In this document: in pieces, positions 4,230 to 15,541 of the stretch
How the letters are laid out: each line of letters begins with the position of its first letter
How positions within the stretch are numbered: the stretch's first letter is position 1
Source of the DNA: an uncultured Lachnospiraceae bacterium
Lineage (GTDB): Bacteria; Bacillota; Clostridia; Lachnospirales; Lachnospiraceae
Length of the DNA stretch: 24,000 nt
Direction: 5' to 3'
NCBI GenBank assembly: GCA_964369755.1
Contig: CAYJFY010000020.1
Span: 1,408-25,407, forward strand
The notes under the pieces: model-generated
Database searches by the model: none
What the model was told of the DNA's origin: nothing
Seen by the model: the letters and a program-made list of their open reading frames with translations, nothing else
Position numbers and translations under genes: made by a program

Positions 4230-4245
4230 TTCATTGTACGAAAAA

Positions 4246-4272
4246 TAAAATGCGGTCGTTTGACCGCATTTT
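4246..4272 (+). terminator. Rho-independent terminator after the histidine kinase gene
   Basis: There is a perfect 11-bp stem, AAAATGCGGTC (4246-4256) and GACCGCATTTT (4262-4272), with a 5-nt loop (4257-4261). The flanks are A-rich 5' and T-rich 3'. It lies 17 nt after the HK stop codon. Confidence 0.7.
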
Positions 4273-4274
4273 AT

Positions 4275-4303
4275 TTGACAATTTTCAAATTTATAAGTAT
4301 AAT
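4275..4303 (+). promoter_or_regulatory. Consensus sigma-A type promoter driving the toxin-antitoxin / R-M gene string
   Basis: TTGACA is at 4275-4280 and TATAAT at 4298-4303, separated by an exact 17-bp spacer. An AGGAGG RBS (4312-4317) follows. A small TACGTA palindrome (4305-4310) sits between the -10 element and the RBS. Confidence 0.65.
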
Positions 4304-4324
4304 GTACGTATAGGAGGTGGGTCG

Positions 4325-4675
4325 TTGGAGAATCAATCAAATAATTCAGACATAATAAGATTTCTTGAAAAAGTTAAAATATTATTATCTTCAGGGAAAT
4401 ATGATTTTGTTCCAAGAAGAAAAAATCTACAATCCTTAGCACTGCATGGACTTACAATCGCAGATGCTAGAGATGAGATTTTAGGATTAGTTGTAGATGA
4501 TTACTATAAAGGTCCTAAGCGAGATTTTGATACAAATAGACCCGGAGAAATATGGGAGTTTAAAAAGAATATTAATGGAATAAATTTCTATGTAAAAGTA
4601 AAAATAGTAAATGAAAATGGTGAAGATATATTGAAATGTCTAGGATTTCATGAAGATGAATTTTATAATAGATAG
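4325..4675 (+). CDS. MqsR-like type II toxin (putative ribosome-independent mRNA interferase)
   Basis: The start is assigned to TTG 4325, 7 nt after AGGAGG. The ORF-track start at 4211 would span the terminator and promoter. The sequence (..LHGLTIADARDEILGLVVDDYYKGPKRD...IWEFKK..FYVKVKIV..ILKCLGFHED) parallels my recollection of E. coli MqsR (LGLDFDGMCNVIIGLSESDFYKSM...IWQDVY..VYLKITV..LIVSFKE). The toxin-first gene order followed by a Zn-ribbon/HTH protein is as in mqsRA. Confidence 0.6.
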   Translation: MENQSNNSDIIRFLEKVKILLSSGKYDFVPRRKNLQSLALHGLTIADARDEILGLVVDDYYKGPKRDFDTNRPGEIWEFKKNINGINFYVKVKIVNENGEDILKCLGFHEDEFYNR

Positions 4676-4687
4676 GTGGTGGAGTTG

Positions 4688-5692
4688 ATGAAAAAATATT
4701 GTGAAGAATGTGGTAGAGAAGTAAAAACTACAATAATTGTAAAAAAAGAAGATTATAATGTTTGTGGTGAAACAATAGAAGTAGATGCTCAAATATTGAC
4801 ATGTGAAGAATGCGGTGAAGAATTTTATTGTGAAGAACTTGATAGTCAAACATTGATAGAAGCATACAATAAATATCGTAGACGACATAAACTTTTATTT
4901 GCTGAAGATATAAAGAGAATCAGAGTGCAATATGGACTAAGCCAGAGAAGTTTTGCAAAACTTCTTGGTTGGAGCGACAAAACTATTCGTAGATATGAAA
5001 ATGGTTCGATACAAGATAAATCACATAATAGTTTGCTTTTATTTTTGAAAGAACCTGAAAATATGAAAAGCTACATTGAAGAAAATGAAATAAAATTGGA
5101 TGATAAGCAAATCAATAAGCTATTACAGACAATTGAACAATTAGAACAAGGTAATGAGGATCAAATGAGGAGACGTCTATTTGAAATATTTTTTTCAACA
5201 ACTCCATCAGAAGATAACGGATTTAAAGTTTTTGATTATGATAAAACATGTGCAATGGTACTTTTTTTTGTAAATAAAATGGATGAGTTATTAAAAACAA
5301 AACTGTTGAAGCTCATCAATTATTCTGATATGATTTTTTATAAAGAGAATGGGGTATCTATTTCAGGAAGTCGCTATATTCATATGCCGTTTGGACCTGT
5401 TTTGAAAAATCATGATATTTTATTTGGAAAAATGGAATCTGACAATATTGCTCATATCAATATTGCAACCGAAGGGAAATATGAAAAACATCAAGTGGTT
5501 TCGGAGCATTCGTTTCCGAAGGACATATTATCTAAGAGTGAAATTGAAGTTTTAGAACGTGTATACAAGAAGTTCAAAGATTTTGGCTCTGTAGAAATAT
5601 CTGATTATTCTCATAAAGAAAAAGGATATTGCTCAACATCACATGGAGATATAATTTCATATTCGTATGCCAAATATATGTCATTGGATTAG
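4688..5692 (+). CDS. Tri-domain antitoxin: MqsA/YgiT-type zinc ribbon + XRE-family HTH + C-terminal Panacea (DUF4065, SocA/GepA-like) domain
   Basis: The zinc ribbon is CEECGREV...(about 30 aa)...CEECGEEF. The HTH reads IKRIRVQYGLSQRSFAKLLGWSDKTIRRYENG. The DUF4065-like core reads LLKTKLLKLINYSDMIFYKENGVSISGSRYIHMPFGPVLKNH. ATG 4688 follows a GGTGGTGGAG RBS, and in-frame GTGs at 4676 and 4679 are alternatives. It abuts the stop of the toxin gene. Confidence 0.75.
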   Translation: MKKYCEECGREVKTTIIVKKEDYNVCGETIEVDAQILTCEECGEEFYCEELDSQTLIEAYNKYRRRHKLLFAEDIKRIRVQYGLSQRSFAKLLGWSDKTIRRYENGSIQDKSHNSLLLFLKEPENMKSYIEENEIKLDDKQINKLLQTIEQLEQGNEDQMRRRLFEIFFSTTPSEDNGFKVFDYDKTCAMVLFFVNKMDELLKTKLLKLINYSDMIFYKENGVSISGSRYIHMPFGPVLKNHDILFGKMESDNIAHINIATEGKYEKHQVVSEHSFPKDILSKSEIEVLERVYKKFKDFGSVEISDYSHKEKGYCSTSHGDIISYSYAKYMSLD

Positions 5693-5754
5693 AACAGTAA
5701 AATAATCCCTGCAAAAGAGATTTTATAAATGAAGATGCAATTGGAGGAATAAAA

Positions 5755-7470
5755 TTGACGGATAAAGAGTTAAAAGAATTAAAAGCAAAATTATGGAGTG
5801 CAGCAGATACATTACGTGCAGATTCAGGTTTGAAGTCTACTGAGTATTCGACGCCGATATTAGGTTTGATATTTCTAAGATTTGCAGACAGCAAGTATAG
5901 GGAATACGAAACCTGTATCGCAGAAGAATATAACCAGAATAAAGGTTCACGAATGGAAAGAGAAATCAGCGAAATAGCTATTGAAAAATGTGGTTTTTAC
6001 TTGCCAGAAGAGGCGAGATACGAATATTTACTGAATCTACCAGAGAGTGAAAATATTCCTGAAAAAGTAAAGAATGCTATGTTGGCTGTTGAGAAATATA
6101 CTCCAAATTTAGCAGATACCTTACCTAAAGACGAATATTATGCTGTTGATGGTAAAGATGGAAAGGCGGTTGTAAAAAGGCTGCTAAAAGCTTTTAAAGA
6201 TATACCAGATAATACGACAATTGATATTTTTGGTGAAATATATGAGTATTTTCTTGGAGAATTTGCACTTGCAGAAGGTCAAGGGGGCGGACAGTTCTTT
6301 ACTCCACCGTCAGTAGTTAAATATATGGTAGAGGTTCTTTCACCTGTTGACGGCGAGATATTCGATCCTGCTTGTGGTAGTGGTGGGATGTTTGTGCAAG
6401 CGGCTCACTATATCCAAAAGCATAAGAAAAACGGAAATAATATTAATCTTCGTGCTTATGGTGTAGAAAAGGACAAGTCTACAGTAAATTTAGCTAAAAT
6501 CAATATGGCATTACATAATATTCGTGGAACTATTATCGAAGCAAATAGTTACTATTCGGATCCATATGAATGTTTTGGGCGATTTGATTATGTTATGGCA
6601 AATCCACCATTTAATGTAGATGGAGTTGAACTTGAGGATGTTAAAAACCAAGCGAGGTTCAATACATATGGTGTGCCACAGAATAAAACCAAAAGCAAAA
6701 AATCAGCAGGAGAAACTGTACCAAACGGCAACTACTTATGGATTAACATGTTTGCAACATCTTTAAAAGCAAATACTGGAAAAGCAGCACTAGTTATGGC
6801 AAACTCTGCGTCGGATGCAGGGAAAAGTGAAAAAGACATTAGAACTAAATTGATAGAAAGTGGTGTAATAAGTCAAATGGTAACATTGCCTTCTAATATG
6901 TTTTCCACGGTAACATTGCCAGCAACCCTATGGTTTTTTGATGCTGCACGTAAAAATAAAGATGAAATTTTATTTGTAGATGCAAGAAATGTATTCACTC
7001 AAGTGGATAGAGCACATAGAAAATTCACTGATGAGCAAATCAAAAACCTTGCTATAATCTCAAGACTTTATGAAGGTAATACCGATGAATTCACTGCTTT
7101 GATTGAGGAATATAAAGTCGAAATCACTCGCTTAGAACAAGGTGGAGAAATTGAAGAGAAGAAAGATATAGAATATTGGCAGTCCAATATTGATTGGTTA
7201 CAAGAACGATTCCCAGAAGGTAAATATCAAGATGTAACTGGACTTTGTAAAGTTGCAAAAATAGAGGGTGAGGATGGAATCAAAGACCAAGACTATTCAT
7301 TAAACCCTGGACGATATGTTGGGGTTGTTATCGAAGATGATGGTATGACAGAGGAAGAATTTAAAGAAGAAATGTTGAGCTTACAGGCCGAACTCGAAAA
7401 GCTAAATGAAGAAGCACGAGAGCTTGAGAATAAAATTTCACAGAATTTGAAAGGACTGTTCAATGAATAA
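5755..7470 (+). CDS. hsdM: Type I restriction-modification system DNA methyltransferase subunit (N6-adenine)
   Basis: The N-terminal HsdM_N-like region reads LWSAADTLR...ILGLIFLRF. Other motifs are GQFFTPPSVV, motif I DPACGSGGMF and motif IV MANPPFN. TTG start at 5755 is 6 nt after a GGAGGA RBS. Confidence 0.95.
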   Translation: MTDKELKELKAKLWSAADTLRADSGLKSTEYSTPILGLIFLRFADSKYREYETCIAEEYNQNKGSRMEREISEIAIEKCGFYLPEEARYEYLLNLPESENIPEKVKNAMLAVEKYTPNLADTLPKDEYYAVDGKDGKAVVKRLLKAFKDIPDNTTIDIFGEIYEYFLGEFALAEGQGGGQFFTPPSVVKYMVEVLSPVDGEIFDPACGSGGMFVQAAHYIQKHKKNGNNINLRAYGVEKDKSTVNLAKINMALHNIRGTIIEANSYYSDPYECFGRFDYVMANPPFNVDGVELEDVKNQARFNTYGVPQNKTKSKKSAGETVPNGNYLWINMFATSLKANTGKAALVMANSASDAGKSEKDIRTKLIESGVISQMVTLPSNMFSTVTLPATLWFFDAARKNKDEILFVDARNVFTQVDRAHRKFTDEQIKNLAIISRLYEGNTDEFTALIEEYKVEITRLEQGGEIEEKKDIEYWQSNIDWLQERFPEGKYQDVTGLCKVAKIEGEDGIKDQDYSLNPGRYVGVVIEDDGMTEEEFKEEMLSLQAELEKLNEEARELENKISQNLKGLFNE

Positions 7471-8152
7471 TGAAAATTTACAATACTCTTTACAACCACT
7501 GAATAAGTTATTAGAGCAGTATGAGAAAGTAAATATAACTTTGATTAATAGTGTTTCAAATACATTACTAGACATTATAAAAATGTTTGAGAATATAGAA
7601 ATATCTCTTTGTGAAAATCAATATAAATTGGCTGAAACATTATCTTTGCTTGGAGGAGTACCGGCGAATTTCAAGGCATTAGAAAAACTAGGAGATAATC
7701 AGTTTATATGGTTTAAATCATTAGATAAAGGCTTGGTAGAAAAATTGAATACAAGCGAAAATACGAATCATTTATTGGATGAGTATATTAAGAAAGGTGA
7801 ATGTTTTGAAACTGATGAAATAATTAAAGCAATCAAAAAATCTAGTGCAATAAAAAAAAGAAAATTATTGTTTTCACAATCAATTACTGCTTATCGTAAT
7901 AAACATTATTTGCTAGGATGTGTAGGGCTAATTTCTATAATTGATATTTTTCTCAGTCAAATCAGTGGAGATGCAACAACAAAATTTATGAAAAAAGTGG
8001 ATTATATAGTAAAACAAGCATGTGCAGATGAAGTTCTTAATGATTACGATGCCAAATATTTTTATATGTCATTTGGTATTGAGAGAACATTAAAAACGTT
8101 ATTTGATTTTTCTGATTTTACGAAAGATGAACCAAACAATATACGAAACTAG
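7463..8152 (+). CDS. Hypothetical protein (229 aa, soluble, predicted helical) inserted between hsdM and hsdS
   Basis: ATG 7463 overlaps the hsdM stop by 8 nt (ATGAATAA), and an AAGGA lies 8 nt upstream. It is a clean 690-nt ORF in an otherwise tightly packed operon. I recognise no catalytic motif. The region LFSQSITAYRNKHYLLGCVGLISIIDIFLSQISGD recalls uncharacterised Firmicutes and phage-associated helical proteins. Confidence 0.6.
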   Translation: MNNENLQYSLQPLNKLLEQYEKVNITLINSVSNTLLDIIKMFENIEISLCENQYKLAETLSLLGGVPANFKALEKLGDNQFIWFKSLDKGLVEKLNTSENTNHLLDEYIKKGECFETDEIIKAIKKSSAIKKRKLLFSQSITAYRNKHYLLGCVGLISIIDIFLSQISGDATTKFMKKVDYIVKQACADEVLNDYDAKYFYMSFGIERTLKTLFDFSDFTKDEPNNIRN

Positions 8153-8221
8153 ATTGTGTTAAGCTTATTCATTTGATTTATGCATTGTTGCTTGTTGACA
8201 ATATAGAAGGTGGTGAATTGG

Positions 8222-9466
8222 ATGGGTAATTGGGAAGAAAAGAAACTTGGTGATATTTTGAAAATCAAGCATGGCTATGCTTTTGAAGGAGAATTTATTA
8301 CTAATATTGAAAATGAAAATATTCTTGTTACTCCTGGGAATTTTAAAACAGGTGGTGGATTCAAATATTCAGGCAAGAAGTTTTATAATGGTAAGATTCC
8401 AGAAGAGTATAGATTAAAATCTAATGATATTATACTAACCATGACGGATTTAAGCAAAGAAAGTGATACTTTAGGGTATGCTGCATTAGTACCTAATGAT
8501 AAAAGGATATATTTGCATAATCAGCGAATTGGCTTGGTATATGACATTGATAATCGAGTAAGTAAAAATTTTTTGTATTGGATGTTAAGAACACCTTGGT
8601 ATCAAAAAAGAATAGTAAATACATCTAATGGAGCAAATGTTAAACATACTTCACCTAGCAGGATATATGCGTATGTCACAAAAGTCCCAGATTTCTCTAC
8701 ACAAGAACGCATTGCTGATATTTTATCTAATTATGATGATTTAATTGAAAATAATACTCGTAGGATTGAATTACTAGAAAAAGCATCACAGGAATTATAT
8801 AAAGAATGGTTTGTGCGTTTTCGTTTCCCTAATCATGAAAATACCAAGTTTGTAAATGGACTGCCAGAGGGATGGGAAGAGAAGAAACTAAAAACAATGT
8901 TTGATATAGGGTCGAGCAAAAGAGTATATTTATCTGATTACGTGGAAGAAGGGATTCCGTTTTATAGATCTAAAGAAATCATCCGACTTTCGGAAGGTCA
9001 AGCAATTAATGAACCATTATATATTAGTGACCAAGCTTTCAACAACTTTAATAATAAATTCGGAGCACCTAATAAAAATGATATCCTTATTACATCGGTA
9101 GGTACTATTGGTAAATGCTATATCTCGGATGGGCATGAATTTTATTTTAAAGATGGAAACCTAACTTGGCTAAGAAGTTCTAAAAATCCTTTGACTGCTC
9201 TCTTTGTTTTTTGTTGGTTAAATAGCAATTATGGACAACAGATACTAATAACATCTACTATTGGTACGTCGCAGAGTGCATTAACGATTGAAAATTTAAA
9301 AAACATTAAATTAATAGTACCATCTGAGGAAGTATTGATAAAGTTTACAAATCAAATTACGCTTATATTCGAAGAAAAAAATCAACTACAAAAACAAAAC
9401 CAAAATATAGCAAAACAACGTGATTTATTATTGCCACGTCTTATGAGCGGAAAATTGGAGGTGTAA
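8222..9466 (+). CDS. hsdS: Type I restriction-modification system specificity subunit (two target-recognition domains)
   Basis: TRD-leading strings are duplicated: GNWEEKKLGDILK at the N-terminus and EGWEEKKLKTMFD mid-protein. The central conserved spacer is IADILSNYDDLIENNTRRIELLEKASQELYKEWFVRFRFPNHE. The C-terminal conserved helix is QRDLLLPRLMSGKLEV. ATG 8222 follows a GAAGGTGGTG RBS, although the ORF track begins at 8210. Confidence 0.9.
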   Translation: MGNWEEKKLGDILKIKHGYAFEGEFITNIENENILVTPGNFKTGGGFKYSGKKFYNGKIPEEYRLKSNDIILTMTDLSKESDTLGYAALVPNDKRIYLHNQRIGLVYDIDNRVSKNFLYWMLRTPWYQKRIVNTSNGANVKHTSPSRIYAYVTKVPDFSTQERIADILSNYDDLIENNTRRIELLEKASQELYKEWFVRFRFPNHENTKFVNGLPEGWEEKKLKTMFDIGSSKRVYLSDYVEEGIPFYRSKEIIRLSEGQAINEPLYISDQAFNNFNNKFGAPNKNDILITSVGTIGKCYISDGHEFYFKDGNLTWLRSSKNPLTALFVFCWLNSNYGQQILITSTIGTSQSALTIENLKNIKLIVPSEEVLIKFTNQITLIFEEKNQLQKQNQNIAKQRDLLLPRLMSGKLEV

Positions 9467-9468
9467 AT

Positions 9469-9996
9469 ATGTCTGAAGAAATAAAAACACATTTAGTATC
9501 AAAAGTTTTTGATAATTTAAAAGATATTACACCTGCACTTATAGCCGTTGATATATGCACAGGTCTATTTATTTTTTTACCTGAAGAAATTTTATTACAA
9601 ATGAGATTAAATTTAATACCTGACTCGTGGTATTTAGTCATTAGTTTGATATTTATATTTTGCATATCATTAACAATTGTTATTGGTCTACGGTATATGT
9701 TAAATAAAGTTTATTTACAAATAAAGTATAAAAAAAGAATTAAAGGTTTAAGAACTAGTTATATTAATCTAAATAAAAAGCATAAAAACTTGATAAAAGA
9801 GTTGTTGAGATCTCAAGAAAAATCACTTCATTTTAATTATTATTCTGGTGATATAAAGTATTTGGTTAAAAATGCATTTATATATCAAACATCAAATATG
9901 ACAACACAATATGGAGAAACACACTTATACTTTCCATATAGTCCTCAACCTTGGCTTATAGATTTATATAATAGAGAACCAGAATTATTTGAGTAA
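9469..9996 (+). CDS. Small membrane protein, possibly superinfection-exclusion protein B (SieB)-family, inserted between hsdS and hsdR
   Basis: ATG 9469 is 2 nt after the hsdS stop, with a GGAGG RBS inside the hsdS 3' end. There are two hydrophobic segments (ITPALIAVDICTGLFIFL and WYLVISLIFIFCISLTIVIGL), a basic linker (KYKKRIKGLR) and a roughly 90-aa C-terminal domain ending YFPYSPQPWLIDLY. This pattern (..LFLP.., two TM segments, ..FPY.LQPW..) matches my recollection of Firmicutes proteins annotated as SieB family. It is unverified. Confidence 0.5.
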   Translation: MSEEIKTHLVSKVFDNLKDITPALIAVDICTGLFIFLPEEILLQMRLNLIPDSWYLVISLIFIFCISLTIVIGLRYMLNKVYLQIKYKKRIKGLRTSYINLNKKHKNLIKELLRSQEKSLHFNYYSGDIKYLVKNAFIYQTSNMTTQYGETHLYFPYSPQPWLIDLYNREPELFE

Positions 9997-10008
9997 AGGA
10001 GAAACTTT

Positions 10009-13000
10009 ATGCCAAACTTTATATCAGAAGATAACATTGAGCAAGCTGCCATTCAAAAACTTGTAGATACAAATAAGTACAATTCCATCAATTGTTATAC
10101 TGCTGATCCCGACACCTTAGAGGATGGCAGTGGTAGAGCAGAGAAAAAGCAGGTTATATTACCAACTGTATTGCTAGAGAGTCTTGTACGGTTGAATCCA
10201 CAATTGCCTTTGCATTGTGTGGAGAAGGTAGCAGATGAATTGTCTAAAACACCTACAACAGTGGAATTGATGCGTGCCAATTATCTTGCATATCAACAAA
10301 TTCGAAATGGTATAAAAGTAGAGTATGATGAAAAAGGAAAAGAGCGTAAATCCAAGTTACAGATAATCGATTTTGAAGAACCTACAAACAATGATTTTAC
10401 TGTGGTATCCCAGCTATGGATTCGTGGAGAGGTTCACTGGCGTAGACCTGATTTGATTCTCTATGTAAATGGATTACCAATGGTATTCATCGAACTTAAA
10501 AATTCTAATATTAATGTGAAAAATGCGTATGATAAGAATTTAAGAGATTATCTAAAAGATATTCCATATCTATTTCACTACAATCAAGTCTGTGTACTAT
10601 CTAATGGTACTGAAACGAGACTTGGTAGTTTTGCTGCTGGATATGAACATTTTTTTGAATGGTTAAAAGTAGAAGATGAAAAGGAAAACCCAGATCGCAA
10701 AGCGATCAAAGAACATGCAATCAGTCTGGAATATTTGATTGATGGTTTACTAAAAAAAGAGACACTGATTGATTATATAGAAAATTTCATTTTATATGAC
10801 AGACAGAGAGTAAAGCTGATAGCGAAAAATCATCAATACCTTGGGGTAAACAATGCTTATAATGCTTTTCTAAATCGTGGAAATCTTGAGGGTAAATTGG
10901 GTGTATTCTGGCATACTCAAGGTAGCGGGAAGAGTTACTCAATGGTTATGCTTGCACGTAAAATTAAACATAAAGTCAATGGAAATTTCACATTTTTAGT
11001 TATAACAGATAGGGCAGATTTAGACACGCAAATCTGGAAGAACTTTTGCCGAACAGAATTTATCTCAAAGGATGAAAATGTTCGTCCGGCAACGGGAGCA
11101 AAGCTTCGAGAAGAATTAAAAAGCAATAAGACTATTTTGTTTACACTCATACATAAATTTAAATACGATAAGGGGAAATCGTATCCTATTTTATCAGAAC
11201 GTAATGATATTATTGTAATCGTTGATGAAGCGCACCGAACACAATATAAAGACTTGGCAGAGAATATGAGAAAAGGGTTGCCGAATGCACAATTCATGGC
11301 ATTTACAGGAACGCCATTGTTAGGTGCGAAAAGATTGACAAACTCTTGGTTCGGCGATTATGTTTCTGAGTATAATTTCGCCCAATCAGTAAAGGATAGT
11401 GCTACAGTTCCGCTATATTATGTAAATGGGATGAAAGAAGTTCGCCTACAAAACGATTTCTTGGATGAGGATTTGGCTGAAATACTGGAAGAGGAAGATT
11501 TAAAAGATGCTGAAAAAGAACGTCTTGAAAATCATTATGCAAAAGAGTTAGAAGTTATTAAGCGTGATGATCGGCTAGATAAAATAGCGAGACATATAGC
11601 GTATCATTTTCCACGTAGAGGATTTTTAGGAAAGGGCATGGTCATCTCTGTTGATAAATTTACAGTTGTTCGAATGTATAATAAGGTGAATTATTATTGG
11701 GATGAAGAAATTAAAAGCATTAACGCAGAAATCACAAAAACAGCTGATCAAGATAAGCGAATAGAATTGAAGCGAATGGTAGACTACATGCGAAAAGTTC
11801 AAATGGCAGTTGTCGTTAGCGAAGAAGATAAGGAAGAAGAAAAATTTCAAGAAGAAAAATTAACGATAAAACCACATAGAGATAGAATGAATGCTGTGGA
11901 TGAGAATGGCTTTGATATTGAAGATAACTTCAAAGACCCAGAACATCCCCTGAGTCTAGTTTTTGTGTGCTCCATGTGGCTAACTGGTTTTGATGCTCCT
12001 TCAGTATCAACTCTATATTTAGATAAACCGATGAAAGGTCATACCTTGATGCAGACCATTGCACGAGCAAACAGGGTGTACCCAAACAAAGAAAATGGTA
12101 TAGTCATCGGTTATCTTGACGTATTCAAATCTCTGAAAAAGGCATTGGTGGACTATGCAACAGATGATAGTGACGAGCTACCTGTTAAGGAAATAGACAA
12201 GCTGTATGACCAACTTTTAGAGTCGATTGAAGTTACTAAGACGTTTTGTCTAGCACAAGAAATTGATTTATCAAGATTAAATAATAGTGAAGATACATTT
12301 GCTAATCTATCTGATTTCGAAGATTTTGCTAATATTATTGTATCCAATGATGAAGTGAAGAATGAGTTTAGGGTGCTTGCTAATACAGTTGGGAATCTAT
12401 ATGAATCTTTGCGTCCAGATATTTTTAAAATGAATTTTGAAGCTAGCGATAAAGAAAAAATTCTTTATTTAAAAGAAATTATTGATGGAAAAATAAGACC
12501 AGAAAAAATAGAAAAAGCAAAGTACAGAATTGGTGAACTATTGAATCAAAGTATTATTGCAGAAGAGACAGCACCATATGGCACTAAAAATTCAGAAGAA
12601 ACAATGCAAATTATCACTATGGCAGAGCCGATTGATTTATCTAAAATAGATATTGATATATTAAAGGATAAAATAAAAAGATCAAATCATAAAAATTTAG
12701 AAATAGCAAATTTAAGACAGTATATAGATAAAAAATTAGCTCAGATGATAAAGAAAAATGTCTCCCGTATAAGTTTTGCCGAAAGATTTCGAAATATTAT
12801 AGATGAGTATAATGCAGGCGGTGCGTATAACGACGAATTTTATAAAAAACTATTAGAGTTTATGAGTGAATTAAGAGAAGAAGAAAGTAGACATGTCAAA
12901 GAAGAGTTAAGTGAAGAGGAATTAGAACTTTTTGATCTATTACAAAAGGAAAAGCTTACAAAAGAAGAATTGAAGCGTGTCAAACTTGCTGCAAGGCAAC

Positions 13001-13215
13001 TGTATCAGACATTAAAGGCAAAAAAAGATGAACTTTTTGTTGTAGGTTGGGAAAAAGATGAACAGCCAAAAGAAAAAGTAAGAAAAGAAATCAAGACTAT
13101 ATTAAATAAATATTTGCCAGATAGTTATAATCGGGAAATTTTTGTAAGTAAATCAGATACTATTTTCTACCATATTGTTGATCAGGCACTAATGGGTGTG
13201 AACTGGATTGCTTAA
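10009..13215 (+). CDS. hsdR: Type I restriction endonuclease R subunit (PD-(D/E)xK nuclease + SF2 DEAD/DEAH translocase)
   Basis: The N-terminal nuclease core is RPDLILYVNGLPMVFIELKN. Helicase motifs are I (HTQGSGKS), II (IVDEAHRTQY), III (MAFTGTP) and VI (QTIARANR). The C-terminal helical region has FAERFRNIIDEYNAG, typical of HsdR tails. An AAGGAG RBS lies 7 nt upstream. Confidence 0.95.
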   Translation: MPNFISEDNIEQAAIQKLVDTNKYNSINCYTADPDTLEDGSGRAEKKQVILPTVLLESLVRLNPQLPLHCVEKVADELSKTPTTVELMRANYLAYQQIRNGIKVEYDEKGKERKSKLQIIDFEEPTNNDFTVVSQLWIRGEVHWRRPDLILYVNGLPMVFIELKNSNINVKNAYDKNLRDYLKDIPYLFHYNQVCVLSNGTETRLGSFAAGYEHFFEWLKVEDEKENPDRKAIKEHAISLEYLIDGLLKKETLIDYIENFILYDRQRVKLIAKNHQYLGVNNAYNAFLNRGNLEGKLGVFWHTQGSGKSYSMVMLARKIKHKVNGNFTFLVITDRADLDTQIWKNFCRTEFISKDENVRPATGAKLREELKSNKTILFTLIHKFKYDKGKSYPILSERNDIIVIVDEAHRTQYKDLAENMRKGLPNAQFMAFTGTPLLGAKRLTNSWFGDYVSEYNFAQSVKDSATVPLYYVNGMKEVRLQNDFLDEDLAEILEEEDLKDAEKERLENHYAKELEVIKRDDRLDKIARHIAYHFPRRGFLGKGMVISVDKFTVVRMYNKVNYYWDEEIKSINAEITKTADQDKRIELKRMVDYMRKVQMAVVVSEEDKEEEKFQEEKLTIKPHRDRMNAVDENGFDIEDNFKDPEHPLSLVFVCSMWLTGFDAPSVSTLYLDKPMKGHTLMQTIARANRVYPNKENGIVIGYLDVFKSLKKALVDYATDDSDELPVKEIDKLYDQLLESIEVTKTFCLAQEIDLSRLNNSEDTFANLSDFEDFANIIVSNDEVKNEFRVLANTVGNLYESLRPDIFKMNFEASDKEKILYLKEIIDGKIRPEKIEKAKYRIGELLNQSIIAEETAPYGTKNSEETMQIITMAEPIDLSKIDIDILKDKIKRSNHKNLEIANLRQYIDKKLAQMIKKNVSRISFAERFRNIIDEYNAGGAYNDEFYKKLLEFMSELREEESRHVKEELSEEELELFDLLQKEKLTKEELKRVKLAARQLYQTLKAKKDELFVVGWEKDEQPKEKVRKEIKTILNKYLPDSYNREIFVSKSDTIFYHIVDQALMGVNWIA

Positions 13216-13283
13216 TATGACTTTTGTACCGAAAAACATGAAGAATATTGCTTATAGTTGCGAATATAGAGAGGGGGACAATT

Positions 13284-14012
13284 TTGAATATTTCATTGCT
13301 ATTGGAAAAAAAGGATTTATATAATAAAAACTTATACTTGATACCAGAAGAGGTGTTGAAAAAAATAAGAACAAGCTTTCATGTAGAATTTACACATAAC
13401 TCCACAGCTATCGAGGGTAATACTTTGACATTGATAGAAACAAAAGTATTATTAGAAGACAACGTTTCTATAGGTGGCAAAAAACTTCGTGAGATTTACG
13501 AAGTTGTGAATAACCACAAAGCTACTTTATATGTAGAAGAATGTATTGTACAAAATTTACCCTTAGATGAAAAAATCACAAAGGAAATTCATGCAATTAT
13601 CAATGAAAATATCATTGTTGGTGGAGTGTATCGAAATGATGTGGTTATGATTACAGGTGCGAGCTTCAGACCGCCCGTGGGTCAACAAATGTATCACGAA
13701 GTAAAAAATTTCTTTGCTGACTTAGATTATCGAACTGACCTAAACCCTATCGAACTTGCAGCATGGACGCACGCTGAATTTGTTCGTATTCATCCTTTTG
13801 TTGACGGAAATGGACGGACTGCAAGGCAGATTATGAACTATCAGCTTATGCGGAACGGATTTCCGCCTGTGTCAATATCAGCGAAGGAAAGTTTAGCTTA
13901 TTACAATGCACTTGATAAATATGGCTCTGTAAGAGATTTAACGTCATTTGCGGAACTTCTTGCAAATCTGGTAGAGAAAAGGTTTGATGAGTTTTTAGGA
14001 GATTTTGTATAG
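13284..14012 (+). CDS. Fic family protein (putative AMPylase) with an N-terminal auto-inhibitory helix motif (class II architecture)
   Basis: The Fic active-site motif HPFVDGNGRTAR is at 13791-13826. The inhibitory (S/T)xxxE(G/N) motif STAIEG is at 13401-13418. The start is assigned to in-frame TTG 13284, 6 nt after GAGGGGG, although the ORF track begins at 13248. Confidence 0.9.
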   Translation: MNISLLLEKKDLYNKNLYLIPEEVLKKIRTSFHVEFTHNSTAIEGNTLTLIETKVLLEDNVSIGGKKLREIYEVVNNHKATLYVEECIVQNLPLDEKITKEIHAIINENIIVGGVYRNDVVMITGASFRPPVGQQMYHEVKNFFADLDYRTDLNPIELAAWTHAEFVRIHPFVDGNGRTARQIMNYQLMRNGFPPVSISAKESLAYYNALDKYGSVRDLTSFAELLANLVEKRFDEFLGDFV

Positions 14013-14041
14013 TATGGTGGAATTAAGTTTATATTATGATA

Positions 14042-14084
14042 AATAATTATACTTGAAATTATTATAATTTCAAGTATAATTATT
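14042..14084. repeat. Perfect palindrome (19-bp arms, 5-nt centre) between fic and the ATPase gene; possible weak terminator and/or bidirectional promoter/operator
   Basis: AATAATTATACTTGAAATT (14042-14060), ATTAT, AATTTCAAGTATAATTATT (14066-14084). One further A:T pair would extend the arms to 20 bp around a 3-nt loop. It contains TTGAAA (14053-14058), a 16-bp spacer and TATAAT (14075-14080). By symmetry the same hexamers occur on the minus strand. The stem is almost entirely A/T. Confidence 0.6.
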
Positions 14085-14143
14085 TTATAGAGATATATCG
14101 AGAAAACTAGGGGCAGTTCTTATGAGTAAGAAAGGGGCTTGAA

Positions 14144-15541
14144 ATGAATAAATTTGTGAATCGAATATCAGAACTCAATACTCTGAATTCTGAGTACGAA
14201 AGTAAACAATCTAATTTTGTTGTCATTTATGGTCGTCGTAGGGTTGGAAAAACATCATTGATTACAGAGTTTTTGAAGGACAAAGAAGATAGCATTTATT
14301 TTCTGGCTACAGAAGAATCGGAGAAACAAAATTTAAAAGGTTTTAGAAATCTTGTGGCTGATTATTTAGGGAATGAGCTTTTGAAGTCTGCGGACGTAGA
14401 GTGGTCAACGGTGTTTGAATATTTAGAAAAGTATCAATCCAATAGTAAACAGGTTATTGTTATTGATGAGTTCCAATATATTGGACAATCCAATCCTGCC
14501 TTTCCATCCGTGGTTCAAAAAATATGGGATACTCTGTTGAAAGATAGCAATATAATGATGATTATCTGTGGATCCTATATTTCTCTGATGAAGTCCCAAG
14601 CACTTAACTATTCAAGTCCTTTGTATGGGAGAAGAACGGCACAGATTAAGTTGAAACAAGTAGAATTTAAACATTATAATGAATTTTATCAAAACAAGTC
14701 TAATGAAGAACTGATTCCATTCTATGCGGTAACAGGAGGAGTTCCCAAGTATATTGAAATGCTCAGTGACCATGATGATGTGTATCGTGCGATAGAGAAA
14801 AATATTCTAGATAAGCAAAGTTTCTTGTATGAGGAACCTTATTTTCTGTTACAGAAAGAGGTAAATGAAATTGGGAGTTATTTCACACTGATTAAGGCTA
14901 TCGCTTTCGGCAATCATAAGCTTTCTGATATTTCAGCTGAAATGGGGGTGAAAGCCACAGGTATTACAAAATATCTGAAAGTTTTAATGGATTTAGATCT
15001 TGTGGTAAGAGAGGTACCGATTACGGAATCCAATCCAGAAAAATCAAAAAAAGGATTATATAAGTTGACGGATAACTATATAGCATTTTGGTTTAAATTC
15101 GTATACCCTTATCGAGTTTTTCTAGAAAGGGGGGAGAAGGATTTTGTTTTAAATAAGATGAAAGAAGGATTTGTTCAGAATTATGTATCCTATGTATATG
15201 AAGATATCGCAAGAGAGAAGATGTGGGCACTAAATATAGCGGGAACGTGGGGATTCAACTTCGATAAATTAGGTCGATATTGGGGGAATAAACTAGGTGA
15301 AGTAGATATTGTAGCAATTGATAGCATCGAGAAAAATTTGATTGTAGGGGAATGCAAATATACAAAATCTGAAAAGGGATTGAATGTACTTCACGCATTA
15401 GAAGAAAAAGGCGAGGTATTAAGAAAACTCACAAAATCTAAAAATGTAGAATATATTCTCTTCAGCACAGGTGGATTTACAAAAGGACTTTTAGATGTAG
15501 CGGAACAAAATCCCAAAATAAAACTTATTGATAAGCTGTGA
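14144..15541 (+). CDS. ATP-binding protein: P-loop ATPase (archaeal-ATPase/ATPase_2-like) + winged-helix + C-terminal DUF234-type PD-(D/E)xK nuclease-like domain
   Basis: The N-terminus FVNRISELNTLNSEY...FVVIYGRRRVGKTSL contains Walker A, and Walker B is VIVIDEFQY. The wHTH-like region is LSDISAEMGVKATGITKYLKVLMDLDLVVRE. The C-terminal GEVDIVAIDS...LIVGECKY fits a D...ExK nuclease signature. Confidence 0.8.
   Translation: MNKFVNRISELNTLNSEYESKQSNFVVIYGRRRVGKTSLITEFLKDKEDSIYFLATEESEKQNLKGFRNLVADYLGNELLKSADVEWSTVFEYLEKYQSNSKQVIVIDEFQYIGQSNPAFPSVVQKIWDTLLKDSNIMMIICGSYISLMKSQALNYSSPLYGRRTAQIKLKQVEFKHYNEFYQNKSNEELIPFYAVTGGVPKYIEMLSDHDDVYRAIEKNILDKQSFLYEEPYFLLQKEVNEIGSYFTLIKAIAFGNHKLSDISAEMGVKATGITKYLKVLMDLDLVVREVPITESNPEKSKKGLYKLTDNYIAFWFKFVYPYRVFLERGEKDFVLNKMKEGFVQNYVSYVYEDIAREKMWALNIAGTWGFNFDKLGRYWGNKLGEVDIVAIDSIEKNLIVGECKYTKSEKGLNVLHALEEKGEVLRKLTKSKNVEYILFSTGGFTKGLLDVAEQNPKIKLIDKL

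Follow-up and report, generated by a model that had tools for sequence, protein, structure and literature searches.

An antitoxin that carries two domains, each of which could neutralize its toxin, raises an obvious question: which of them does so, and what is the other one for? The pair considered here lies in a 24,000-nucleotide stretch of DNA (the window) from an uncultured Lachnospiraceae bacterium (contig CAYJFY010000020.1), just ahead of a type I restriction-modification (R-M) operon. The locus is a two-gene toxin-antitoxin cassette, encoding a predicted RNase toxin of the MqsR type and an antitoxin made of a zinc ribbon, a helix-turn-helix (HTH), and a Panacea domain. It is an ordinary member of a large annotated family with an experimentally dissected architecture, and not a new kind of system. 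What is new in this analysis is a conserved 34-bp inverted repeat that travels with the cassette. The features are as follows.

4243-4276: 34-bp inverted repeat, AAATAAAATGCGGTC GTTT GACCGCATTTTATTT, with 15-bp arms and a 4-nt spacer; its core, GCGGTC-N4-GACCGC, lies at 4252-4267

4275-4303, + strand: sigma-70-type promoter, TTGACA (4275-4280), 17-nt spacer, TATAAT (4298-4303)

4313-4320, + strand: toxin ribosome-binding site (RBS), AGGAGGTG, read from the sequence; GGAGGTG is conserved in related loci

4325-4675, + strand: MqsR-family toxin gene, 116 aa, TTG start; predicted RelE/MqsR-fold endoribonuclease

4688-5692, + strand: antitoxin gene, 334 aa, ATG start; PanA of the ZBD-HTH-Panacea type (ZBD, the zinc-ribbon domain), from HMM matches and homologues

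4700-5068, + strand: MqsA-like module of the antitoxin (residues 5-127), a Cys4 zinc ribbon followed by an XRE-type HTH (approximately residues 71-109)

5303-5623, + strand: Panacea domain of the antitoxin (DUF4065 / SocA_Panacea, residues 206-312), from a PF13274 match; many residues are invariant across homologues

5693-5754, + strand: 62-nt gap from the antitoxin stop to the hsdM start, in which no intrinsic terminator was detected

Transcription from the strong promoter would copy the toxin gene first and the antitoxin gene second. The two reading frames are separated by 12 nt, and the antitoxin RBS, GGTGGTGGAG, spans the toxin stop codon, an arrangement that suggests translational coupling. 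The antitoxin start is placed at ATG 4688, not at GTG 4676, because the homologues all begin MKKYCEEC.

Is the smaller protein an MqsR? It had been called MqsR-like from the sequence alone, and profile searches stop short of that: the Pfam MqsR_toxin match (PF15723) scores 22.0 bits against a gathering score of 26.2 (E 2.2e-4, profile positions 6-89 of 95), an NCBIfam search with the toxin returned zero matches, and a profile-to-sequence comparison matches MqsR weakly (E 0.4). The assignment is made despite the sub-threshold Pfam score because of the predicted structure, its fold match, and the annotation of relatives. The AF2 model is confident (pLDDT 90.4, pTM 0.82), and a Foldseek search of the PDB with this model places E. 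coli MqsR (3hi2_B) at the top (E 5.6e-4, probability 1.00, TM 0.61/0.71, the higher value on the target), as the sole match at E<=0.001. Most toxin relatives at 73-79% identity have a precomputed PF15723 match, and some of them go by 'MqsR family toxin' at NCBI; homologues form 723 clusters, many of them with PF15723 or that name. Catalysis by E. coli MqsR reportedly depends on residues K56, Q68, Y81, and K96. Two of these, K56 and Y81, align with K62 (in DYYK) and Y89 (in FYVK) of the toxin, both invariant. At the C-terminal position an invariant H109 stands in place of K96, and the equivalent of Q68 is uncertain, the alignment being weak there. By homology, then, the toxin would be an endoribonuclease of the MqsR/RelE fold.

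The larger protein is more easily placed. The amino-terminal MqsA reading (zinc ribbon plus HTH) holds in three models, each above its cut-off: TIGR03830, the MqsA family (94.5 bits against 61.8, residues 5-127); PF15731, MqsA_antitoxin (33.6 bits against 30); and PF01381, HTH_3 (34.3 bits against 23, residues 75-107). HTH_31 also matches, with 28 bits. The predicted zinc ribbon contains cysteines C5-x2-C8 and C39-x2-C42, invariant in 17 homologues, and AF2 models it well, as a beta-ribbon (pLDDT 77-91 over residues 1-50). The carboxyl-terminal DUF4065/Panacea call is equally firm: PF13274 (SocA_Panacea) scores 68.8 bits against 25.7 (E 9.7e-19, profile positions 1-110 of 113), and the motifs first quoted for it are present, KLLKLINYSDMIFY at residues 205-218 and MPFGPVLKNH at residues 233-242. 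Direct resemblance to proteins of known structure is slighter. The alignment with E. coli MqsA (3gn5_A) is colinear and weak (E 0.08), and a profile search of PDB sequences brought up nothing but generic HTH antitoxins (HigA2) at E<=0.01. The AF2 model of the full-length antitoxin, built with 17 close homologues, is poor (pLDDT 49.7, with the Panacea part below 50), and was not used for fold searches.

Both candidate neutralizers are thus present in one protein, as the sequence-only reading had noted. The closest guide to their roles is the Bacillus fungorum MqsR:PanA pair. There, the toxin is neutralized by the ZBD, alone or joined to the HTH, but not by Panacea, whether alone or with the HTH (Ernits et al. 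2023, PMC10440598). From this result and from E. coli MqsA we infer that the antitoxin described here blocks its toxin by direct binding through the N-terminal Cys4 zinc-ribbon domain. The result is carried over from distant dissected homologues, at approximately 26% identity to a B. cereus-group proxy. At that distance from Bacillus-type pairs the mechanism could differ, and in some PanATs, such as that of B. choladocola, Panacea itself neutralizes directly (PMC10440598). In E. coli, the toxin of a Herbaspirillum MqsR:PanA pair was toxic and its PanA gave no rescue (PMC8832971). Nevertheless, it is very unlikely that Panacea has taken over neutralization in this pair and left the MqsA-like part as a DNA-binding autoregulator only: the only dissected ZBD-HTH-Panacea antitoxin neutralizes through its ZBD and not through Panacea (PMC10440598), and invariant positions take in the four zinc cysteines and much of the ZBD, as expected if this domain still binds toxin.

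A different proposal is that Panacea works as a SocA-like protease adaptor, delivering the toxin to ClpXP (the type VI mechanism). SocA has the same Pfam domain and acts in this way in Caulobacter (PMC8832971). For PanAs generally, however, the proposal is disfavored: in the pairs tested, neutralization needs neither ClpXP nor Lon, and PanAs pull down their toxins directly (PMC8832971). The toxin encoded here has an MqsR fold, not a SocB-like one, and its antitoxin has a dedicated binding domain in the ZBD, so an adaptor role is extremely unlikely.

With neutralization assigned to the ZBD, the Panacea domain, conserved and under selection, would most likely be accessory. Another role considered in the sequence-only reading, that of a trigger sensor, survives as a published proposal (Ernits et al. 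2023, PMC10440598). Panacea could, hypothetically, sense a trigger such as phage infection, whereupon the toxin would be released or activated. The idea fits the setting of the cassette in a defence island, and this clean example from gut Clostridia could help to test the function of Panacea in antitoxins that neutralize by other means.

How unusual is the architecture? It had been regarded as noteworthy unless it proved to be a common, already characterized family, and that is what the survey returned: 1269 antitoxin clusters at 90% identity, with the architecture dissected in PMC10440598. Clustering at 50% identity leaves 438 clusters at E<=1e-30, with full-length members making up most of the top 150. 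PGAP names such antitoxins routinely, and among annotated PanT partners MqsR-like proteins are the most frequent (n = 90; Kurata et al. 2022, PMC8832971). The B. fungorum MqsR_D2:PanA pair (WP_099686063.1 / WP_099686064.1) and its Lactobacillus rossiae counterpart (WP_017263062.1 / WP_017263061.1) are both described as 'Panacea; ZBD (MqsA); HTH' (PMC10440598). PGAP annotates a pair on the B. thuringiensis (B. cereus-group) plasmid pKK3 as MqsR family toxin and SocA-domain antitoxin; both proteins align over their full length with those of the window pair, at 26-27% identity (E 4e-22 and 2e-11). Predicted in 2013, catalogued in 2022, dissected in 2023, and named by annotation pipelines, the ZBD-HTH-Panacea architecture carries little weight as a discovery. 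(PADLOC has no model for the MqsR/MqsA-Panacea pair, and gives weak HTH matches only.)

The limits of the cassette are sharp. DNA homology to relatives, the nearest of which are uncultured Clostridia and Candidatus Epulonipiscioides, is confined to 4243-5692: the left edge falls at 4241-4249, and the right edge is the antitoxin stop codon. Toxin and antitoxin are kept as a unit, with an intact toxin copy directly 5' of the antitoxin, in 69 of the 77 assessable loci, and these loci lie in unrelated contexts. Very probably, the locus is a type II toxin-antitoxin cassette of the MqsR:PanA type, approximately 1.45 kb long, self-contained and horizontally mobile. The remaining eight loci contain a full-length antitoxin without an intact toxin, and such orphans may point to an antitoxin role that is independent of the toxin. 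One relative is a putative single-chain toxin-antitoxin fusion of 448 aa, encoded on a 56.9-kb contig; orphans and fusion together hint at routes by which the cassette decays or is rewired.

The left end is marked by the inverted repeat, whose right arm abuts the -35 box. The consensus promoter noted earlier ahead of the cassette is confirmed, matching at 12 of 12 positions, and related loci have TTGAC(A/T) and TATAAT in the corresponding place, usually 16 nt apart. Of 84 related loci, with different genes upstream, 76 have the repeat. Its inner GGTC/GACC is invariant in these loci and an ATAT spacer is at least 90% conserved. The outer pairs covary: 89.5% of cells are paired, against 38-53% in slid controls, and both sides have changed in 8 of 12 pairs. 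Within the window the exact core occurs once (0.05 expected). In 67 of 68 loci, 14-16 bp separate the repeat centre from the -35 hexamer downstream of it, and repeat and promoter are retained even ahead of orphan antitoxins.

Earlier attention had gone to a different palindrome, TACGTA, as the candidate operator. It lies at 4305-4310 as described, but among 69 related promoters only that of the window has it (49 of them have a GTAYA-type sequence there), and it was rejected in this role. By analogy with homologues, the HTH would dimerize and repress its own operon, and the most likely repressor site is the 4243-4276 repeat rather than TACGTA. As RNA, the same element may also stop incoming transcription. 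The conserved GGTC-N4-GACC repeat may be both a previously undescribed operator for the MqsA-Panacea clade and an insulating terminator; being so sharply conserved at the left end of the cassette, it offers a concrete operator candidate for the clade.

With its centre approximately 15 bp ahead of the -35 hexamer, the repeat leaves the -10 element clear, and in most loci A and T runs flank it. Given these flanks and this position, it could be a terminator alone, an intrinsic one that works in both directions and insulates the cassette, and not a protein-binding operator. That reading is possible, if doubtful. The predicted hairpin is strong (-20.3 kcal/mol, z -6.6, and approximately -20 kcal/mol on either strand), most loci have the A-run and T-run flanks, the outer stem shows compensatory changes, and in the window the repeat sits 14 nt past the stop codon of an upstream histidine kinase gene. 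Against it, the inner GGTC/GACC does not vary and the ATAT loop is at least 90% conserved, whereas in these loci the sequences of the promoter spacer and of the 3' terminator hairpins are free to drift. Approximately ten loci (e.g., L001-L006, L035, L039, L048, and L051) have AAAA for the T-tail, none of them with a U-tail on the + strand, and among these only L051 also exchanges the 5' A-run for T's, keeping the extended palindrome. The fixed spacing to the -35 box and the retention of repeat and promoter in front of orphan antitoxins likewise argue against a terminator alone. A simpler version, in which the hairpin at 4252-4267 merely terminates the upstream histidine kinase gene, was dropped; the hairpin travels with the cassette.

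Downstream, the type I R-M genes follow directly (hsdM 5755-7470, hsdS 8210-9466, and hsdR 10009-13215), and the neighbours are defence genes: besides the R-M system, a SieB-domain protein, a Fic protein (PDC-S04), and an ATPase (PDC-S27). The 62-nt gap ahead of hsdM, with no terminator detected, makes read-through from the cassette promoter into the R-M operon possible, and the sole promoter-like site near this gap is weak (9/12, at 5678-5706). Among related loci, 31 of 81 have a hairpin with a T-tail within 110 nt of the antitoxin stop. Might the pair be a functional part of the R-M operon, its HTH protein a C-protein-like controller and its promoter the driver of hsdM, hsdS, and hsdR? That no other gene comes between the consensus promoter and the pair is in keeping with this, as is the open gap, and so is a distant homologue on a Clostridium estertheticum plasmid that has an N-6 DNA methylase one gene later. 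Although the cassette does precede a type I R-M operon in the window, the arrangement is not conserved: of 80 related loci, only 3 have type I R-M genes within 6 kb, short of the linkage expected of a C-protein, and none of the three has the direct adjacency of the window (in L006, the antitoxin is followed by hsdM after approximately 1 kb; L013 and L069 have their R-M genes upstream). DNA homology does not extend past the antitoxin stop codon, Tannockella and others have the cassette by itself, and the PADLOC 'Control_protein' match is a weak, generic HTH match (15.9 bits). A functional place in the R-M operon is distinctly unlikely.

A looser connection is improbable as well, though slightly less so: that the presumably antitoxin-repressed promoter also drives the R-M operon, with its embedded SieB-like gene and gene of unknown function, while the repeat separately serves as an undescribed operator/terminator. 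If this were true, restriction, modification, and superinfection exclusion would be induced together upon loss of the antitoxin or upon sensing of a trigger by Panacea.

As a self-contained cassette, the pair can be set beside several known systems. E. coli MqsR/MqsA (YgiU/YgiT; 3hi2, 3gn5, and 3o9x) has the same plan of a toxin gene first, a RelE-like MqsR fold, and an N-terminal Cys4 zinc domain followed by an HTH. However, the HTH is the last domain of E. coli MqsA (131 aa), whereas the window antitoxin continues into Panacea, and direct similarity is weak (E 0.08-0.4). The E. coli mqsRA operators are ACCT-N(2-4)-AGGT palindromes that overlap the core promoter; the window repeat is built around GGTC-N4-GACC and sits immediately ahead of the -35 box. 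As in E. coli, autoregulation through a promoter palindrome is expected.

Closer still are the MqsR_D2:PanA pairs of B. fungorum and L. rossiae: toxin-first bicistrons with an MqsR-type toxin, the ZBD-HTH-Panacea order, and antitoxins of similar length. Those pairs are from Bacilli and have been validated as toxin-antitoxin systems, with the ZBD as neutralizer in B. fungorum, whereas the window cassette is a predicted one, of a gut Clostridia/Lachnospiraceae type; identity between them is probably 25-30% or so, judging from the pKK3 proxy.

More broadly, the cassette resembles PanATs in general (PMC8832971), with a Panacea/DUF4065 antitoxin in a mobile two-gene module that occurs in many contexts, and with the commonest recognizable PanT, an MqsR-like protein. 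Caulobacter SocAB shares the Panacea/DUF4065 domain in its antitoxin, there as a ClpXP adaptor and with a toxin unlike the MqsR-fold protein described here. And whereas Panacea is itself the neutralizer in many PanATs, the window antitoxin has a dedicated ZBD, and its Panacea domain, by homology, is probably accessory.

Both open reading frames that the sequence-only reading had described are present, in the same orientation, behind a consensus promoter. The gap between them is 12 nt and holds the antitoxin ribosome-binding site (RBS). The cassette comprises the following elements:

4243-4276: near-perfect inverted repeat, 15-bp arms, consensus AAAATGCGGTCATATGACCGCATTTT, directly upstream of the -35 box and abutting it
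4275-4303, plus strand: promoter TTGACA-17-TATAAT, a perfect consensus
4313-4320, plus strand: toxin RBS AGGAGGTG, read from the sequence
4325-4675, plus strand: toxin, 116 aa, TTG start
4688-5692, plus strand: antitoxin, 334 aa, ATG start

The domain assignment of the antitoxin (MqsA zinc ribbon, HTH, and Panacea) was borne out, as curated cut-offs were passed for TIGR03830 (MqsA family; 94.5 bits, cut-off 61.8), PF15731 (33.6 bits, cut-off 30), HTH_3 (34.3 bits, cut-off 23), and SocA_Panacea (68.8 bits, cut-off 25.7; residues 206-312). Cysteines C5, C8, C39, and C42 are invariant in homologues. The toxin alone scores just below the Pfam MqsR cut-off (22 bits versus a gathering score of 26.2; E 2.2e-4), and E. 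coli MqsR matches the toxin-family profile weakly (E 0.4). Yet the assignment holds: the sole significant PDB match of the confident AF2 model (pLDDT 90.4) is MqsR 3hi2_B (E 5.6e-4, probability 1.00, TM 0.71 on target), and most toxin relatives at 73-79% identity match PF15723, some bearing the NCBI name "MqsR family toxin". Residues K62 and Y89 are invariant and correspond in the alignment to E. coli K56 and Y81; H109 also is invariant.

In the database, a copy of the toxin (P0121) has been given a length of 141 aa, with ATG 4250 as its start (4250-4675). This codon falls within the inverted repeat, upstream of the promoter, and is almost certainly the wrong start because toxin homologues have 114 aa. 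The two genes share a reading frame and are separated only by TAG and the four codons GTG GTG GAG TTG (4673-4687), so stop-codon read-through would yield a fusion like database protein P0294. That 448-aa protein, from a 56.9-kb metagenome contig, joins MqsR_toxin (10-97), MqsA (119-227), and Panacea (319-427) in one polypeptide; P0049 (354 aa) joins about 20 N-terminal toxin residues to the antitoxin. Both may be genuine fusions, or else artefacts of assembly or gene calling.

Antitoxin homologues form 1269 clusters at 90% identity. Nearly all of the best 120 are 334-aa proteins with an identical set of three Pfam domains; the names given to some of them are "type II TA system antitoxin MqsA family protein" and "DUF4065 domain-containing protein". 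Clustering at 50% identity leaves 438 clusters with E<=1e-30; of the best 150, more than 120 align with the query over its full length (31-66% identity), and a domain scan found MqsA and Panacea both retained in three divergent representatives. Distant full-length homologues (about 29% identity) occur on Clostridium plasmids and human-faecal phage contigs. One of these, at 29.5% identity, lies on Clostridium estertheticum plasmid pCF008-B (NZ_CP077626.1, 14441-17937). Downstream of it come a hypothetical gene and then an N-6 DNA methylase, and an AbiEi antitoxin gene is nearby; this too is a defence-type neighbourhood.

Loci were surveyed in species-representative genomes, mainly Lachnospiraceae and other gut or rumen Clostridia (80 loci). 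DNA homology to the window begins at 4241-4249, with the inverted repeat as left edge, and ends at about 5690; the cassette, so delimited, spans about 1.45 kb between unrelated flanks. It is common and mobile. In Tannockella kyphosi it is surrounded by unrelated housekeeping genes. Cassettes in three Bacteroidaceae/Bacteroides bins (L017, L018, L059) and one Methanomethylophilaceae archaeon bin (L057) are 63-68% identical to those of Clostridia; binning contamination or recent horizontal transfer is possible. An intact toxin gene directly precedes the antitoxin at 69 of 77 assessable loci. At the other eight, and at L001 (T. kyphosi), the toxin gene is truncated or deleted and the antitoxin is full length (L001, L014, L023, L034, L056, L062, L063, L066, and L081). 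These orphan antitoxins keep the promoter and inverted repeat; their occurrence suggests either cassette decay or a toxin-independent role.

Of 69 related promoters, only that of the window itself has the proposed operator, TACGTA (4305-4310), which is set aside. The inverted repeat is the better candidate. It is present at 76 of 84 loci, some 430 nt before the antitoxin start and independent of the upstream gene (in the window, a histidine kinase gene). In 67 of 68 loci, 14-16 bp separate its centre from the -35 hexamer; the -10 box lies outside it. The inner GGTC/GACC shows no variation, the central 4 nt are at least 90% conserved, and the outer pairs covary: paired cells make up 89.5% (38-53% in slid controls), both sides have changed in 8 of 12 outer pairs, and none of 500 shuffles reached the observed covariation score. 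Read as RNA from either strand, the repeat folds into a strong hairpin (-20 kcal/mol), in most cases bordered by A and T runs, and so may end incoming transcription. That it serves solely as a terminator is nevertheless doubtful: about ten loci have AAAA in place of the T-tail, and among these only L051 keeps an extended palindrome (its 5' A-run changed to T's). Moreover, the 3' terminator hairpins of the related loci drift in sequence, with compensatory changes (for example L012:1917-1951, L022, L025, L041, and L068). These features favour a putative protein-binding operator, possibly with a double role as terminator.

At least 19 loci share such a related 3' hairpin, AGCGGCYTCCGG...CCGGRAGCCGCT followed by T's, 7-21 nt past the antitoxin stop. 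The window has none, and a search of the stretch from the antitoxin stop to hsdM detected no terminator, so co-transcription of the cassette with hsdM is possible. The genes that follow, all on the plus strand, are:

5755-7470: hsdM, type I R-M
7463-8152: 229-aa ORF between hsdM and hsdS, overlapping the hsdM end by 8 nt
8210-9466: hsdS, type I R-M
9469-9996: 175-aa SieB-domain protein (superinfection exclusion protein B, 58.1 bits), between hsdS and hsdR
10009-13215: hsdR, type I R-M
13248-14012: Fic/DOC protein directly after hsdR (PADLOC candidate system PDC-S04, 122.7 bits)
14144-15541: ATPase_2/DUF234 protein (PDC-S27, 190 bits)

The 229-aa ORF had no match in Pfam, NCBIfam, or PADLOC; it is a gene without family assignment that sits within the type I R-M operon. 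The whole of 4243-15541 looks like a defence island. The position ahead of this operon, singled out in the sequence-only reading, is real in the window but not a conserved feature: only 3 of 80 loci have type I R-M homologues within 6 kb of the cassette. The lack of a detectable terminator before hsdM could point to the antitoxin as a controller of the R-M genes, an unlikely role given this poor conservation and the 50 of 81 related loci that, by the same test, also have no detectable 3' terminator. Defence-gene clustering explains this arrangement better than a functional unit does.

Kurata et al. (2022; PMC8832971) defined Panacea and PanA. MqsR-like toxins were the most frequent recognisable PanA partners (n = 90), 343 PanAs had N-terminal HTH extensions, and the paper cites a prediction, from 2013, that DUF4065 is an alternative antitoxin of MqsR. 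Ernits et al. (2023; PMC10440598) validated two MqsR_D2:PanA pairs, from B. fungorum and L. rossiae, with "Panacea; ZBD (MqsA); HTH" given for both antitoxins. In B. fungorum, the zinc-ribbon domain (ZBD) alone or ZBD-HTH neutralised the toxin; Panacea alone or HTH-Panacea did not, which makes neutralisation by Panacea improbable in the window pair. AF2 supported HTH-mediated dimerisation of the B. fungorum PanA, and the authors favoured a sensory role for Panacea. A protease-adaptor role is more improbable still, as PanAs neutralise without need for ClpXP or Lon (PMC8832971). The window pair, then, is quite likely a type II MqsR:PanA module, in which the toxin would be an RNase neutralised by the antitoxin zinc ribbon, an HTH dimer at the upstream inverted repeat would autoregulate the operon, and Panacea would be accessory, a conserved domain that may sense a trigger.

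As a stand-in for the published pairs, a B. cereus-group pair from B. thuringiensis plasmid pKK3 (PGAP: MqsR family toxin and SocA-domain antitoxin) was compared with the window pair. The two pairs align end to end (26% identity, E 4e-22, and 27% identity, E 2e-11) and have identical Pfam domains. The sequence-only reading had allowed for a common, already characterised family, and the cluster count together with the two publications, including the dissection in PMC10440598, identifies one: the window pair belongs to a known, experimentally characterised kind. Only two points go beyond published work: the conserved inverted repeat, and the possibility that transcription reads through into the R-M operon.
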